Assembly: GCA_019242175.1 (NCBI GenBank)
Contig: JAFAVZ010000214.1
Span: 1 to 39,257 of the forward strand
Direction: 5' to 3'
Length of the DNA: 39,257 nucleotides
DNA from: Acidobacteriota bacterium
GTDB lineage: Bacteria > Acidobacteriota > Thermoanaerobaculia > Gp7-AA8
Numbering within the stretch: the stretch's first letter is position 1; the number at the start of each line of letters is the position of its first letter. Positions 8,767-38,210 of the stretch are shown piece after piece. Under the pieces are notes generated by a model. The model saw only the letters and a program-made list of their open reading frames with translations, ran no database searches and was not told the DNA's origin. The position numbers were made by a program, and so were the translations under genes.

Positions 8767-11700
8767 GCGCCTCCTTCCAGGGCGACGGCGGGCTCCGGCA
8801 GGAGCCGATCGAGATAGCGGTTGATGAGCGATTCGTCGGCGGCCGGGCAGACGATACCGAGCCGCGCGAGACGCGTTTCGGTGCGTGTGCAGTCGAAGAT
8901 CGGCTCGCCTTCTTCCGGCTCTTCCATCAGCGCGAGGAACTTCGCGAGCGGGTTCTCCGGCGCGTGGCGGAGCTGCTCGATCCACGACTTGTACGGCGCG
9001 ATGCCGACGTCGAAGCCGCGTTTGCGCAGCGCGGCGACGAGCTCCGTCAGCGGGAGCATGCGGTTGTTGAAGTAGTGAAAGTCGGCCGGCTGGTCGTCGT
9101 GCAAGGCGAGCGCGACGATCGAGCGCGCGATGTGATCGACCGGCGCCATGTTCAGGAGCGGCGCGTCGTCCGGGAAGCTGCCCAGTTGCACGCAGCCCTG
9201 GATCCAGCTGTAGAAGAGGTCGGACGGATTGAGCGCGCCGGTTTGCGAGTCGCCGGTGATGCGCGCCGGGCGATGGATCGACACCGGCAGGCCGCTCTCG
9301 CGCGCGAGCTGGGCGATGCGGTCCGCGACCCACTTCGTCTCGTTGTAGCCCCCGAGGATGTCGCGTCCCGGCGGCAGCGGCGACTCCTCCGTGATCACGC
9401 TGCCGATGCGCGGCTTCGTGAACTGCACGCCGAGCGTCGAGACGAGATGCACCGGTTTGAGGCGCTTCGTCGCCGCGAGCTGAAGGACGGTGCGCGTGCC
9501 TTCGACATTTGCGGCGGCGAGGCGTTCGTAGGGCACGACGAAGTTCACCGCGCCGCCGTTGTGAATGATGAGGTCGATCTTCTCGGCGAGATCGTGCGTG
9601 TCGTCGAGTCCGAGGTTCGGCTCGGCGAGATCGCCGAGGAGCGAGACGATGCGCGACTCGTCGAGCGGCAGGCCGTAGGACGCGAGGTTCTCGCGGATGC
9701 GGCGCATCGCGTCGCGTTCGTTCGCCGCGCGGACGAGTGCGTAGATCGTCGCGGTCGTCGTCCGTTGCAGCTCGGCGAGGAGGTAGGCGCCGAGGAAGCC
9801 GGTGGCGCCGGTGAGCAAGATGTTCCGTGGTTCGCCGCGATGGGCCGGCTGGAGAGCCGGCCCTACATCGATTGGCGTGACTTTCGACTCCAGCGTGTCG
9901 GCGGTCGGGGCGCTGCCAGTCAGGAGCGCGGCGAAGCGGGCCACGGTGGGGGCGCGGAAGACGGAGCTGAGTGGGAGGTCGACGCCGAAGCGTTCGCGCA
10001 CTTTGTGGATGAGCGGCATCGTGCGCAGCGAGTCGCCCCCGTGAACGAAGAAGTCATCGTCGATGCCGAGGTTGTCGAGCTCGAGGATGTCGGACCAGAG
10101 CGCGGCGAGCTCGCGTTCCATCTCGTTGCGCGGGGCGCGCGATTCGGCGGCGACGCGCGGCGGTGCGGGCAGGGCGTTGAGGTCGACCTTGCCGTTGCTC
10201 GTCAGTGGCAATGCTTCGAGGCGCACGATCGCGGACGGCACCATGTACTCGGGCAGGCGATCGTGCAGCTGCAGCTCGGCGTCGCCCACCACGTACGCGA
10301 CGAGGCGTTCGTCGCGTTTCATGACGAGCGCCGCGCGCATGCCGGGATGCGCGAGGATCGCGGCTTCGATCTCACCCGGCTCGATGCGGAAGCCGCGCAG
10401 TTTGATCTGGCGGTCGACGCGGCCGAGGAAGAGGAGATCGCCCGATGCGAGACGGCGGACGAGATCGCCGGTGCGATAGAGCCGGCCTTCGCCGAACGGA
10501 TTGAGCGGGAACTCCTCGCGGCCGTGATAGCGCGCGACGCCGACGCCGCCGATGGCGAGCTCGCCGGCGATGCCGTCCGGAACGAGCTCGCCGTGCTCGT
10601 CGAGGATGTACGCACTGACGTTCGCGATCGGTTTGCCGATCGGCAGCTCGGTCGTCGTGCACTCGCTCGCGTCGACCGTGTGGTACGTCGTCGCGCACAC
10701 CGTCGCTTCGGTCGGGCCGTAATGGTTGACGAAATGGACGCGGTTACCAGTGAGGCGGGCGAAGCGGCGCACCTCTTCGACCGGCACAGCTTCGCCGCCG
10801 ACCATCATCAACGTGAGCGCCGGGATCGGCTGCCACTCCGCGGCCCAACGGCGCCAGAGCGCGGCCGGCGCGTCGATCGCCGTCACGCGCTGCTCCTCGC
10901 AGAAGCGAGCGAGCGCGCGGGCGTCGAGGTCGGCCGGCGACGGATGGAGGATGAGCGTCGCGCCGGTGGCGAGCGCGGGGAAGACGTCGCCGACGGAGGC
11001 GTCGAAGTGGAGGGGCGGGATCATGAGGATGCGGTGGCCGGCGAAGCCATGGCTCTCCGCGAATGCGAGCGCGAGGTTCACCGCCGCGCGATGCGTCACG
11101 ACGACGCCTTTCGGCGTGCCGGTCGAGCCGGAGGTGTAGATGAGGTACGCGTTGTCCTCGCCGGTCAGCGACTTGCTGTCGTCGATGAGCCAGTCGATGC
11201 GTTCCTGCGGGGCGCCCGGATCGATCGGCAGGTATGCGGCGCCCGCTTTCAAAATGCCGAGCACTTTCGCGATCGACGCGGGCGTGCGGTCGGCCAGAAA
11301 CGGGACGACGTTGCCGTCGATGGTCGCGGCGATCTCGTCGGACCATTTGTCCAATTCGGCGTAGGTGACGTCGTTGACGGCCGGGCGGTCGGGGGTGCGT
11401 TTTGCCTGCGCTTGGAAGAGCGCGTGGAGGGTCGTATTGGGCAGGGAAGGTACGGATCCTTCGCCGTCTTCGCGGCTCAGGATGACACCCCCCACCAACG
11501 CACCGGCGCGGGGCCGGTCGCCGTCTTCGCGGCTCAGGATGACATCAATGGGGGGACCGGCTTCAGCCGGTTCCGGGACGGGCTGAAGCCCGTTCCCACG
11601 TTCCTTCGCCGCACTGTCATCTCTCTCGCCAAGGCTTGCGACCACGTGAATCCGCGTGAAGGCTTGGCCAATCGACGCAGCGGGCCGTGACCGTCTCAGG

Positions 11701-36012: not shown

Positions 36013-38210
36013 CGATCCTGAACGTGGGGACCGGCTTCAGCCGGTCCCGGAACGGGCTGAAGCCCGTTCCCACGTCGTAGCAAGTCCGCCACGATCCGCC
36101 GCAGCTCCTCCGGTTCCACCGGTTTTGCCACGTACGCCGTGAACCCGGCGCGCATCGCGGCCTCGCGGTCCTCGGGGCGGGCGTATGCGGTCAGCGCGAC
36201 GACGGGCATCGTCGAGCCGCGGGCGCGCAGGCGGCGTAGCAGTTCGTAGCCATCCATGTCGGGCATGCCGAGGTCGGTGATCACGGCGTCGGGCGTCCAG
36301 TCTTCGAGCGTCGCCAGCGCCTCGGTCGCCGAGGAGAGGATGCGGATGTCGGCGCCGGCCATGCGGAACACGGCGAGCGCGTAAGTCCGCACGGACTCCT
36401 CGTCGTCGACGGCGAGGATGCGCGCGCCGCGAAGGCTGCCGCCGTCAAACTCGGGCTGCGTCTCGTCCTTCGGCCGCACCTCGGGCGAAAGCAGCGGGAG
36501 GCGAACGCGGAACGTCGCGCCGCGGCCCTCCCCTTCGCTCGCCGCTTCCACGCGGCCGCCGTGCATGTCGACGAGATGGCGCACGATCGCCAGGCCGAGT
36601 CCGAGGCCGGTGTAGGCACGGGTCATCGAGCTGTCCGCCTGGCGGAAACGCTCGAACACGTGCGGCAGGAACGCGGGCTCGATGCCCTGGCCGGTATCGG
36701 CCACCTCGAGCAACGCGAACGGACCTTCGGAGCGCATGGTCACGCGCACGCGGCCGTCGCGCGGCGTGAACTTCACCGCGTTCGAGAGCAGATTCCAGAG
36801 CACCTGCTGGATGCGATGCGCGTCGCCGTTCACGATCAGCGGCTCGGTGGAGAGCGCGCGGTCGACGCGCACGCCTTTGGCCTCCGCGACCGGCGTCACC
36901 GAGTTGATCGCCGCCGCGACGACCGGCCCGAGCTCCATTGGCCGCGGCTCGAGGTGCATCTTGCCGGCGGTGATGCGCGAGACGTCGAGCAGATCGTCGA
37001 TCAGCTGGGCCTGGGCGCGGGAGCTCTTCTGGATCGCATCGATCGCCGTCTTGTTCGTTTCCTCGTCGAGATCTTCTTCCCCGAGTAGACGGGCCCACCC
37101 GATGATCGCCGTCATCGGCGTGCGCAGCTCGTGCGACAGCGTCGCCAGGAACTCGTCCTTCGCCTGATTCGCGCGCTGCATCTCCGCCTCCGACCGGCGC
37201 AGCCGTTCCGCCGTCGCTTCGGCATCCGCGCGGCCGCGCGTCTGGAGCCGGACGAGCGTGAAGATGAGGAACGTGATGATCAGGCCGCCGGCGAGCGTTG
37301 CGAACGCGAGCACCGAGGCCGTGTTCGCGCCGTCGCGACGAAAGACGAGCGTCCAGTGCCGTCCGGCGACGACGACGTCGAGCTGGCGGCGGAAGTGGCC
37401 GTCCGTCGCCTCTCCGGTGCGGAAGAGCAGATGCTGCGGATCGAGCTGCGTGCCGTCGTAGATCTCGATCGCGTCGATGTCGCGTCGATGCTGCGCGTCG
37501 ATGAGATCCGACAGCAGCTCCTCGGAGCGGAACGGCGCGTAAACCCAGCCATAGAGCGTCTCCCGCCGTTTCTCCGGCTCCTCCGGGATCTCGCGCGTCG
37601 TGTAGATCGGCGTGAAGATCGCGAAACCGACGCGCTGCGGCTCGCCGGCCGGACGCAGGAGAAGGAGGCGGCCCGTCGCGGTCGCCTGGCCCGAGTCGCG
37701 GGCACGGATCATCGCTCCACGCCGGGTAGGATCGGTCAACATGTCGAAGCCGAGGACCATGCGGTTGCGCATCTCCGCGGGCTCGAGGACGATCACCGCC
37801 GAATACTCATCGCGGTCGCTTTCGGGCCAGACACGGAAGTCCGGATAGCTCTCCGTGTGCATCGTGTTGACGACGTCGCTCAGCCGGTCCTTCGGGAAGC
37901 GGAGGATGAGACCGACGCCTTGCATGCCGGGAAAGTTCTTCGGCACGTCGAGATGGCGAACGTAGTCGCGGAACTCGTCCTGCGTCACGCTTTGCTCGGC
38001 GGCGAAGAGGCTGTTCGCGGCTTTGAGCGTGCTGATGTCCGTGAGGATGCGGCTCTGGATCGCATCGCGGGCCATCTGCGACGCGCTCTCGAAACGGGCG
38101 CGCACCGCCAGCTCCGCCATGCGCGAGACGTACACCGTCGCAATGCCCGTCAACAGCAGGAAGACGGCGAGCACGAGCCACGGGGCGAACCGGTCGGGAG
38201 AGCGGGACAT
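36009..38210 (-). CDS. CHASE-domain hybrid sensor histidine kinase (TM-CHASE-TM-HisKA-HATPase-REC)
   Basis: Start MSRSPDR at 38210 (733 aa). CHASE LGFDM..PTRR.AM, SHELRTP, NLLSNAVKFT, GLGLGL, and receiver VDD/TDLGMP/AKP. The last ~20 aa derive from a repeat. Confidence 0.92.
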   Translation of the reverse strand: MSRSPDRFAPWLVLAVFLLLTGIATVYVSRMAELAVRARFESASQMARDAIQSRILTDISTLKAANSLFAAEQSVTQDEFRDYVRHLDVPKNFPGMQGVGLILRFPKDRLSDVVNTMHTESYPDFRVWPESDRDEYSAVIVLEPAEMRNRMVLGFDMLTDPTRRGAMIRARDSGQATATGRLLLLRPAGEPQRVGFAIFTPIYTTREIPEEPEKRRETLYGWVYAPFRSEELLSDLIDAQHRRDIDAIEIYDGTQLDPQHLLFRTGEATDGHFRRQLDVVVAGRHWTLVFRRDGANTASVLAFATLAGGLIITFLIFTLVRLQTRGRADAEATAERLRRSEAEMQRANQAKDEFLATLSHELRTPMTAIIGWARLLGEEDLDEETNKTAIDAIQKSSRAQAQLIDDLLDVSRITAGKMHLEPRPMELGPVVAAAINSVTPVAEAKGVRVDRALSTEPLIVNGDAHRIQQVLWNLLSNAVKFTPRDGRVRVTMRSEGPFALLEVADTGQGIEPAFLPHVFERFRQADSSMTRAYTGLGLGLAIVRHLVDMHGGRVEAASEGEGRGATFRVRLPLLSPEVRPKDETQPEFDGGSLRGARILAVDDEESVRTYALAVFRMAGADIRILSSATEALATLEDWTPDAVITDLGMPDMDGYELLRRLRARGSTMPVVALTAYARPEDREAAMRAGFTAYVAKPVEPEELRRIVADLLRRGNGLQPVPGPAEAGPHVQDR
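36022..36075. repeat. GTGG-family REP doublet forming the C-terminus of the histidine kinase
   Basis: 54 bp ACGTGGGGACCGGCTTCAGCCGGTCCCGGAACGGGCTGAAGCCCGTTCCCACGT, encoding RGNGLQPVPGPAEAGPH. Confidence 0.9.

Follow-up and report, generated by a model that had tools for sequence, protein, structure and literature searches.

Short palindromic repeats can be read in frame inside bacterial genes, which is known but has rarely been documented. Intragenic repetitive extragenic palindromic (REP) sequences of the GTAG/CGTC type have been described in several free-living bacteria, many of them in replication and repair genes; in-frame singlets and dimers encode 20-30 residues and clusters 43-82 residues, and the authors argued for a position in flexible linkers or loops (Di Nocera, De Gregorio & Rocco 2013, PMC3733652). 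Different REPs were found at about the same site of recB in two Xanthomonas species (PMC3733652). The Background section of the same paper recalls Rickettsia palindromic elements (RPEs), palindromes located in frame in Rickettsia open reading frames (ORFs) whose proteins are likely functional. The present analysis concerns a 39,257-bp stretch of DNA, the whole of contig C8 of the draft genome G000 (hereafter the window), in which palindromic repeats lie in frame in three non-ribosomal peptide synthetase (NRPS) genes, a GT87-family membrane protein gene and a hybrid histidine kinase gene.

The host ORFs are intact, and orthologues from two congeneric genomes (G001 and G002) have empty sites at several of these positions, so the repeats are true insertions. 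They belong to three families, A, B and C, and elsewhere in G000 each family flanks a gene for a putative mobilizing enzyme, which is a REP-associated tyrosine transposase (RAYT) for families B and C and a small GIY-YIG nuclease for family A.

In-frame repeats in the window and their orthologous sites

G000 is a 5.6-Mb draft bin of 686 contigs with 66% G+C, 86% completeness and 5% contamination, for which a simple codon-usage caller trained on 775 long ORFs gave 4936 genes and 90% coding DNA. G001 and G002 have their gene order in common with it. G002 is 100% complete, and its contig C43 could be aligned collinearly with the window at about 82% identity across 34 kb. The two motifs on which the first-pass annotation of the window had built two families of protein-invading palindromes occurred far more often than expected by chance: the 21-mer GTGGGGACCGGCTTCAGCCGG had 7 matches with up to three mismatches (0.01 expected, 100 shuffles) and the 12-mer TGTCATCCTGAG had 25 matches with up to two mismatches (2.16 expected). 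Repeat-finding on the window recovered the same families, and the Rfam covariance models gave no match in the window at the gathering score. Both motifs are thus real and are present inside intact ORFs at the six sites that had been listed, but the GTAG- and GTGG-headed copies, which had been taken for one family, represent two, so that three families have to be distinguished.

Family A is the longer palindrome, with inverted arms of about 35 nt (TGTCATCCTGAG..GAAGGATC) and a variable mini-hairpin and centre. Family B, headed by GTGG, is a double hairpin of 55 nt, that is, a REP doublet forming a hairpin (REPIN), and its REP reads GTGG-GGACCGGC-TTCA-GCCGGTCCC. Family C is the 25-nt REP GTAGGGCCGGCTCTCCAGCCGGCCC with a GTAG head (GTAG-GGCCGGCT-CTCC-AGCCGGCCC). 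Translation of the repeats yields recurrent peptides such as NVGTGFSR, GLQPVPGPAEAGPH and VILSR(E/G)DGEGS, and the peptides NVGTGFSRS, RGNGLQPVP.PAEAGP and EGSVP are indeed common to unrelated proteins, as had been noticed in the first reading.

The three NRPS ORFs span positions 8763-19749 on the minus strand, collinear with G002:C43 at the identity given above, and their Pfam domain sets are intact: condensation-adenylation-thiolation-reductase (C-A-T-R) in NRPS3 (8763-13097) and C-A-T in both NRPS2 (13100-16471) and NRPS1 (16468-19749). Within NRPS3 a family C singlet with the GTAG head (9842-9866, minus strand), formerly grouped with the GTGG copies, is read in frame as VGPALQPA. It is located at about residue 1077, in the T-R linker between the PP-binding domain (residues 996-1059) and the NAD_binding_4 reductase domain (residues 1095-1327), and matches exactly the REP that flanks the RAYT gene on G000:C210; G002 has unrelated sequence of similar length in this linker. 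The C-A linker of the same protein holds a family A arm (11447-11489, minus strand, 49.5 bits in nhmmer), whose orthologue is present at G002:C43:48853-48893, followed by a 219-nt (73-codon) composite (11490-11708, minus strand) found in G000 only; global alignment places a single 219-nt gap in G002, and the G001 contig is broken here. The composite is made up of an A arm (11518-11545), a B REPIN (11547-11602) and an A-like palindrome (~11613-11708) with the interior GGCCAAGCC.

The inserts of NRPS2 and NRPS1 were found in the adenylation domains, in both cases in the loop that links core motif A2 to core motif A3, just upstream of TSGSTG. NRPS2 carries there a complete family A element with two inverted arms and a centre (14519-14612), which is present in all three genomes with conserved arms and differing centres; a further 33 nt beside it (14479-14511) are specific to G000. 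NRPS1 carries a B REPIN, the double hairpin at 17869-17925 (NVGTGFSRSRRPAEAGAHI), of which G002 has a variant (C43:42717-42770), and the G001 contig ends at the site. The stems of the two copies (ACCGGC/GCCGGT vs GCCGGC/GCCGGC and CCGGC/GCCGG vs CGGGC/GCCCG) differ through paired changes, so that both hairpins are preserved. In 5 of 6 aligned adenylation domains the A2-A3 loop contained peptides derived from repeats of families A, B and C.

The GT87-family membrane protein (21998-23542, minus strand; PF09594, 68.7 bits, residues 155-409) contains a B REPIN (22186-22240) in frame downstream of the GT87 domain, at residues 434-452. The net gain is 45 nt, and the orthologues of G001 and G002, 77-79% identical, have empty sites. 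The last host has the domains CHASE-HisKA-HATPase-REC and its stop codon at 36009-36011, and is a hybrid histidine kinase, not a Ser/Thr kinase. Its B REPIN (36021-36075) is at the terminus, as had been stated, but it replaces the last codons and provides a tail of about 20 residues and is no internal insert; the G001 and G002 proteins lack it and both end ...LAT[AS]RR*. In these two genomes a downstream gene, absent from the window, overlaps the kinase stop codon. About 1.7 kb of G002 (C43:23965-25700) is missing from the window at 35899-36075, with the B REPIN exactly at the junction, and the REPIN may mark a deletion or rearrangement breakpoint.

The inserts thus occupy linkers, loops or termini, which agrees with the first-pass annotation. 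AlphaFold2 modelled the adenylation core of NRPS2 from a six-sequence alignment with a mean predicted local distance difference test (pLDDT) score of 78.8 and a predicted template modelling (pTM) score of 0.81, and the one long stretch whose pLDDT stays below 50, residues 129-173 of the modelled piece, is the insert.

Fourteen sites inside and outside the window were compared among G000, G001 and G002. Besides the empty sites at GT87, the kinase tail and the NRPS3 composite, mfd has a family A copy in G000 and G001 with an empty site in G002, and dnaX has a family C copy in G000 and G002 with an empty site in G001. The indels at the compared sites, among them the net differences of 45, 219 and 33 nt, are all multiples of three. 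The proposal of mobile palindromes inserted in frame, in the manner of RPEs, was in this way borne out. At three of the 14 sites a congener carries a different family in the same position: the metH linker has family A in G000 and G001 and a fourth family, D, in G002; the ctaA loop has B and an A arm in G000 and an exact C REP in G002 (the G001 contig is broken); and sufB/D has C in G000 and G002 and D in G001. An acyl-adenylate enzyme on contig C319 carries a family C doublet in G000 and G002 and other, shorter sequence in G001, and dnaE has a remodelled family A copy in all three genomes. Within the 34-kb syntenic region the only A or B copies common to the window and G002 are the three inside the NRPS genes.

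Several observations were made beside this comparison. The dnaE of G000 (contig C543, L050; ORF truncated by the contig) has its A element, at residues ~895-975, split by about seven in-frame RRAPDxA-like heptads, and G001 has a complete element and G002 a single arm. Family D is a hairpin with the core CCCTCTCCCCGC..GCGGGGAGAGGG and the peptide ..PLPAARGEG..; it is in frame in GT87 (L009) and sufB/D (L190) of G001 and in metH (L180) of G002, and gave no match in G000 at up to three mismatches. A polyketide synthase (PKS) gene of G000 (C115:4939-5536, L029) contains three in-frame B-like copies (..NVGAGFSRPGRAEARPYI..) placed 272-276 nt apart between the methyltransferase and the downstream domains, which look duplicated along with a unit of ~92 residues and not like three insertions.

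Genome-wide distribution and putative partner enzymes

Families A and B were counted genome-wide with nhmmer at E<1e-3 and family C as arms with up to four mismatches. G000 contained 1003 family A arms, 271 family B loci and 561 family C arms (321 of them exact), and 139 adjacent opposite-strand pairs among the C arms represent inverted doublets, i.e. REPINs. In G000, G001 and G002, respectively, there were 245, 0 and 3 copies of family B and 522, 71 and 203 copies of family C; family B has expanded in G000 alone, which is the only one of the three in which RAYTs were found. Copies of one family cluster strongly, since 292 of the 561 C arms and 901 of the 1003 A arms lie no more than 30 nt from another of their kind. 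A family A arm was found within 30 nt of 12 of the 271 B loci, against 3.9 by random placement (maximum 11 in 200 trials). With only these few B loci near an A arm, the two families are independent and their juxtapositions in NRPS3, ctaA and on contig C119 are local; the idea that B is a component of an A+B composite was rejected on the same counts.

Gene interiors are strongly avoided by all three families. Away from contig edges, 899 of 954 A arms (94%), 204 of 255 B copies (80%) and 510 of 543 C copies (94%) were intergenic or touched a gene, and 32, 29 and 12 copies, respectively, were internal; family B had another 12 copies at C-termini and 10 at N-termini. Internal copies amount to 2-11% of each family, and the genic share is far under the 90% expected from random placement. 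That every GTGG copy of the window lies in a coding region is correct (4 of 4 B copies), but this does not extend to the genome, where the copies are mostly intergenic, and the window is therefore an outlier. The unusual density claimed for these insertions was for this reason overstated, the more so as intragenic GTAG/CGTC REPs were on record (PMC3733652), and what stands of it is that the window itself is atypical.

Copies tend to lie close to the ends of genes, and 116 of 4936 predicted genes have their stop codon inside one (A 50, B 24, C 42), and the tails derived from family A mostly read ...[VL]SS*. The 36 host genes outside the window that were scanned with Pfam comprised 30 of the 32 that carry A or B copies, those on C109 and C127 being left out as weak host calls, and 6 with C copies. 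Domains were recognized on both sides of or around the insert in 15 of them and on one side in 12; eight had none, and one was ambiguous and maybe two fused genes. Well-supported hosts include dnaE, dnaX, mfd, metH, sufB/D, ctaA (heme A synthase), an ArsA ATPase, a squalene/phytoene synthase, GH3, the acyl-adenylate enzyme and three trans-acyltransferase (trans-AT)-type PKS genes. NRPS/PKS-like genes make up 3.7% of coding DNA and 6 of 36 genes with internal A or B copies.

The window had been reported to contain no RAYT or GIY-YIG gene, which is true; elsewhere in G000 two RAYT genes and one GIY-YIG gene are flanked by the repeats. The C210 RAYT reached 91.2 bits with the NCBIfam model NF047646 (REP_Tyr_transpos, cut-off 80), its best solved relative is TnpA-REP (4er8), and a 75-nt family C doublet is present on both sides of the gene, the two being 99% complementary. 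The C281 RAYT (163 residues, 88.5 bits) is 58% identical to it and has family B doublets on both sides. The translations contain HVH with YVAQNP (C210) or YLIQNP (C281), which we take to be the HUH and catalytic tyrosine motifs. In every respect that could be tested families B and C agree with REPIN-RAYT systems. A third RAYT-like gene (G000:C12:2240-2917, L005; 225 residues) scored 73 bits, under the NCBIfam cut-off, and has no A, B or C repeat beside it, the inverted repeat of 37 nt at its 3' end being unrelated; without REP flanks and with this score it was rejected as the partner of family B, which is the C281 gene.

The single GIY-YIG gene of G000 is located on contig C670 and encodes 101 residues (PF01541, 62.3 bits against a cut-off of 22.6, residues 6-78); with the group I intron endonuclease model TIGR01453 it scored 19.1 bits, below the cut-off of 56. 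A plus-strand family A arm ends at its start codon, its stop codon lies within a complete A element, giving it an A-derived tail, and further A arms follow on both sides. A scan of one genome per species returned 476 GIY-YIG relatives, the closest of which (57-74% identity) are from Thermoanaerobaculia bins. Among the best 80 loci, which come from Bacillota, Bacteroidota, Cyanobacteriota, Verrucomicrobiota, Acidobacteriota, candidate phyla and others, 75 had TGTCATCCTGAG with at most one mismatch within 1.5 kb (about 0.015 expected per locus) and 65 had an nhmmer arm match, usually with one arm just upstream of the gene and an inverted arm just downstream. In 40 relatives of G000, kinship among the genomes being ignored, at least four exact copies of the 12-mer were present in 17 of 20 genomes with a GIY-YIG homologue and in 6 of 20 without; the tally includes G030, flagged as unpublished, which has no homologue and 44 copies and also gave the best RAYT match. 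Family A has the look of a second, parallel system with a GIY-YIG nuclease at its base, and by analogy with known elements the RAYTs and the nuclease would be the movers of the three families. In the main texts of open-access papers and of bioRxiv preprints no account was found of a dispersed palindrome that is paired with a GIY-YIG nuclease in bacteria.

The remaining copies in the window are intergenic members of family A. Of three arms at 25857-26017 the first provides the TGA stop codon, and hence the A-derived tail, of gene 25168-25869. An array at 26987-27799 consists of two alternating subtypes with a 237-nt period, its three units being 95-96% alike; the subtype centres in 26988-27761 contain ...CTCCTGATGCGGGCGGAAAGCGCACGTGCCGGGAG... 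and ...CCGTACCTTCAGGCGC..GATCGGTACGG..., and the G002 alignment is gapped across the whole array. Minus-strand arms at 29770-29908 lie between genes 27802-29805 and 29939-31993, the arm at 29770-29811 overlapping the predicted start (29805) of the former, and fall in a 157-nt stretch (29732-29888) specific to G000. A complete element (31996-32081) directly 3' of the stop codon of an HrpB-like helicase gene is part of a 97-nt stretch likewise specific to G000. At the syntenic places in G002 (20465-46012 covered) no A arm was found for these clusters. The region 5329-23542 of the window forms a small biosynthetic cluster with an FAD monooxygenase, a major facilitator superfamily (MFS) transporter, the NRPS modules, DUF5916 and GT87, and is conserved in G002.

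Proposed spread, filtering and persistence of the genic copies

Ordinary spread of REPIN- or MITE-like elements (MITEs, transposable elements of the miniature inverted-repeat type) followed by a selective filter, with the gene-borne copies being long trapped, probably accounts for this distribution. The elements would multiply chiefly in intergenic DNA, typically directly past stop codons; a few per cent of new copies would land in genes, and most of those would be lost. Survivors would be copies with a net length divisible by three and a stop-free frame, placed in a tolerant loop, an inter-domain linker or a terminus. A stop-free frame should be easy to come by, because two of the three frames of the master B sequence are open in either orientation. 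Since a genic copy can be removed by a precise in-frame deletion only, it would be trapped and would outlive intergenic copies through speciation, and such trapping would explain both the genic copies common to species and the repeated occupation of the same few permissive loops, sometimes by different families. On this reading selection would be the filter, and the proteins with inserts would be produced and functional.

A number of results weigh against this account. The bin is incomplete, contaminated and split into many contigs, the gene calls come from a simple caller, and the 8 of 36 hosts noted above have no Pfam support. In a comparison of G000 with G002 (sufB/D, dnaX and the acyl-adenylate enzyme) the genic family C REPs were identical at 96 of 100 positions and their flanks at 938 of 1179 (80%), which a neutral passenger would not predict and which calls for gene conversion, for selection acting on the hairpin or for insertion in parallel. 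G002 has 147 exact family A 12-mers and its 203 C copies, but neither a RAYT nor a GIY-YIG homologue (E<=1e-10) was found in it, and no GIY-YIG homologue was found in G032, which has 447 copies of the 12-mer; either the repeats of these genomes are left without a partner, or the enzymes have diverged too far or are missing from the assemblies. The different families at three of the 14 sites, together with three families in the A2-A3 loop, could also reflect a target preference beyond selection.

A wider proposal, put forward tentatively and rather doubtful as a whole, would make family A the non-autonomous partner of the single-copy GIY-YIG nuclease, a REPIN-like replicator independent of RAYTs in many phyla. 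Together with the two REPIN-RAYT pairs it would have turned protein loops (A2-A3, the metH and mfd linkers, the ctaA loop) into heritable landing pads re-used by successive families, the hairpin sequence, at least of family C, being kept by conversion or selection while the gene around it diverges. Re-use of loops might tell where the enzymes insert as well as which copies survive, if the elements were drawn to hairpins, REPs or particular single-stranded DNA. The clustering of families A and C with their own kind and the excess of B near A agree with this, and so do the different families at metH, ctaA and sufB/D in different species, the use of the A2-A3 loop in adenylating enzymes by all three families, the composite of NRPS3 added right beside an older shared arm, and orthologous sites in two species that carry the C master copy exactly. 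However, G002 has no A arm at the places syntenic with the intergenic A clusters of the window, its family C copies at 20858-20908 and 27564-27588 are without a partner in the window, and no common target motif turned up, although no search was aimed at one. Selection for few permissive loops predicts the same pattern and is compatible with such a preference, which we regard as unlikely. Still less probable is exaptation, in which the hairpins or peptides would be kept for a function, be it as an mRNA or DNA structure by which transcription or translation is tuned, as a flexible linker or as points of recombination between NRPS modules. The conservation of the genic C REPs speaks in its favour, as do the paired changes in the stems of the NRPS1 copy, the retention of the NRPS2 element in all three species and the share of NRPS/PKS-like genes among the hosts, which exceeds their share of coding DNA. 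Family A arms in genes, however, are no better conserved than their flanks (295/345, 0.86, vs 1607/1921, 0.84, in five comparisons), so the impression of a greater likeness gained from the NRPS2 alignment was dropped. Copies are present or absent among close relatives in the essential genes mfd and dnaX, the NRPS2 insert is predicted to be a disordered loop, the same peptides occur in unrelated proteins, and conversion among hundreds of copies would equally explain the conservation.

Mis-assembly of a repeat-rich bin or decay of the hosts into pseudogenes was largely refuted and is very improbable. G000 is in 686 contigs and 83 repeat copies are at contig edges, and in the sole public DNA run holding the region (X1, a root metagenome and probably the source sample, with 0.84 of the sampled words present) the region consists of short contigs that end at repeats, none of which bridges an insert. 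Among the public RNA runs searched none held the window region. Both flanks of each window insert, however, continue the same gene collinearly with the orthologue, and copies occupy the same places in the independently assembled G001 and G002 (NRPS1-3, dnaE, mfd, metH, dnaX, sufB/D). The length differences in multiples of three and the intact host ORFs with full domain sets likewise argue against such an origin. Spread followed by filtering remains the preferred account of the genic copies.

Significance and relation to described systems

The three genomes offer a natural experiment within one genus, in which dnaE, dnaX, mfd, metH, sufB/D, ctaA and NRPS domains are empty, filled, or filled by another family in sister species. 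They provide a map of loops that tolerate 15-70 extra residues, which is useful for engineering NRPS adenylation domains, and a warning for annotation, as recurrent peptides such as NVGTGFSRS and VILSxEDGEGS are derived from repeats. The link between the widespread TGTCATCCTGAG palindrome and a very small GIY-YIG nuclease could bring to light a new way for small repeats to move or persist, and in-gene REPs better conserved than their hosts bear on the question whether REPINs live as parasites or are kept as partners.

Families B and C resemble the REPs and REPINs described earlier (Bertels & Rainey 2011, PMC3116915; for TnpA-REP, PMC3479197) in the GTAG/GTGG head, the G+C-rich hairpin and the inverted doublets, and also in the hundreds of mostly extragenic copies near the 3' ends of genes with one flanked RAYT per family. 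The differences are that the host here is no proteobacterium but probably a member of the Thermoanaerobaculia (Acidobacteriota), that two REPIN-RAYT pairs are joined by a third, GIY-YIG-linked family, and that 2-11% of the copies are inside genes. Compared with MITEs (reviews PMC3184786, PMC10969869), family A is alike in its inverted arms round a variable centre and in having a gene-bearing version with the same arms. The ORF of that version encodes the 101-residue GIY-YIG nuclease and not a DDE or HUH transposase, and the arms are nearly identical across many phyla.

With the RPEs the likeness is one of behaviour only, the present elements being set apart by their heads, lengths and host. 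RPEs are longer and are found in a reduced intracellular genome, and we know of no enzyme dedicated to them. GIY-YIG homing endonucleases are found in group I introns and phages, and the family A enzyme is similar to them in being a small catalytic domain associated with selfish DNA, and conserved family A arms serving as homology would be in keeping with copying by break repair. It differs from them in the absence of an intron or intein context and of a DNA-binding extension, the protein having 101 residues in all.

The closest precedent is formed by the intragenic REPs of PMC3733652. The present case differs in that empty and filled orthologous sites were found within one genus, that different families occupy one site, and that family A, which has no RAYT, behaves likewise. 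As in-frame GTAG REPs are already in print there, the REP part of the finding is known in kind. The insertions are therefore less unusual than the first-pass annotation proposed, and their added interest comes from the family linked to GIY-YIG, from landing pads that recur and from the so far unexplained degree to which in-gene REPs are conserved.

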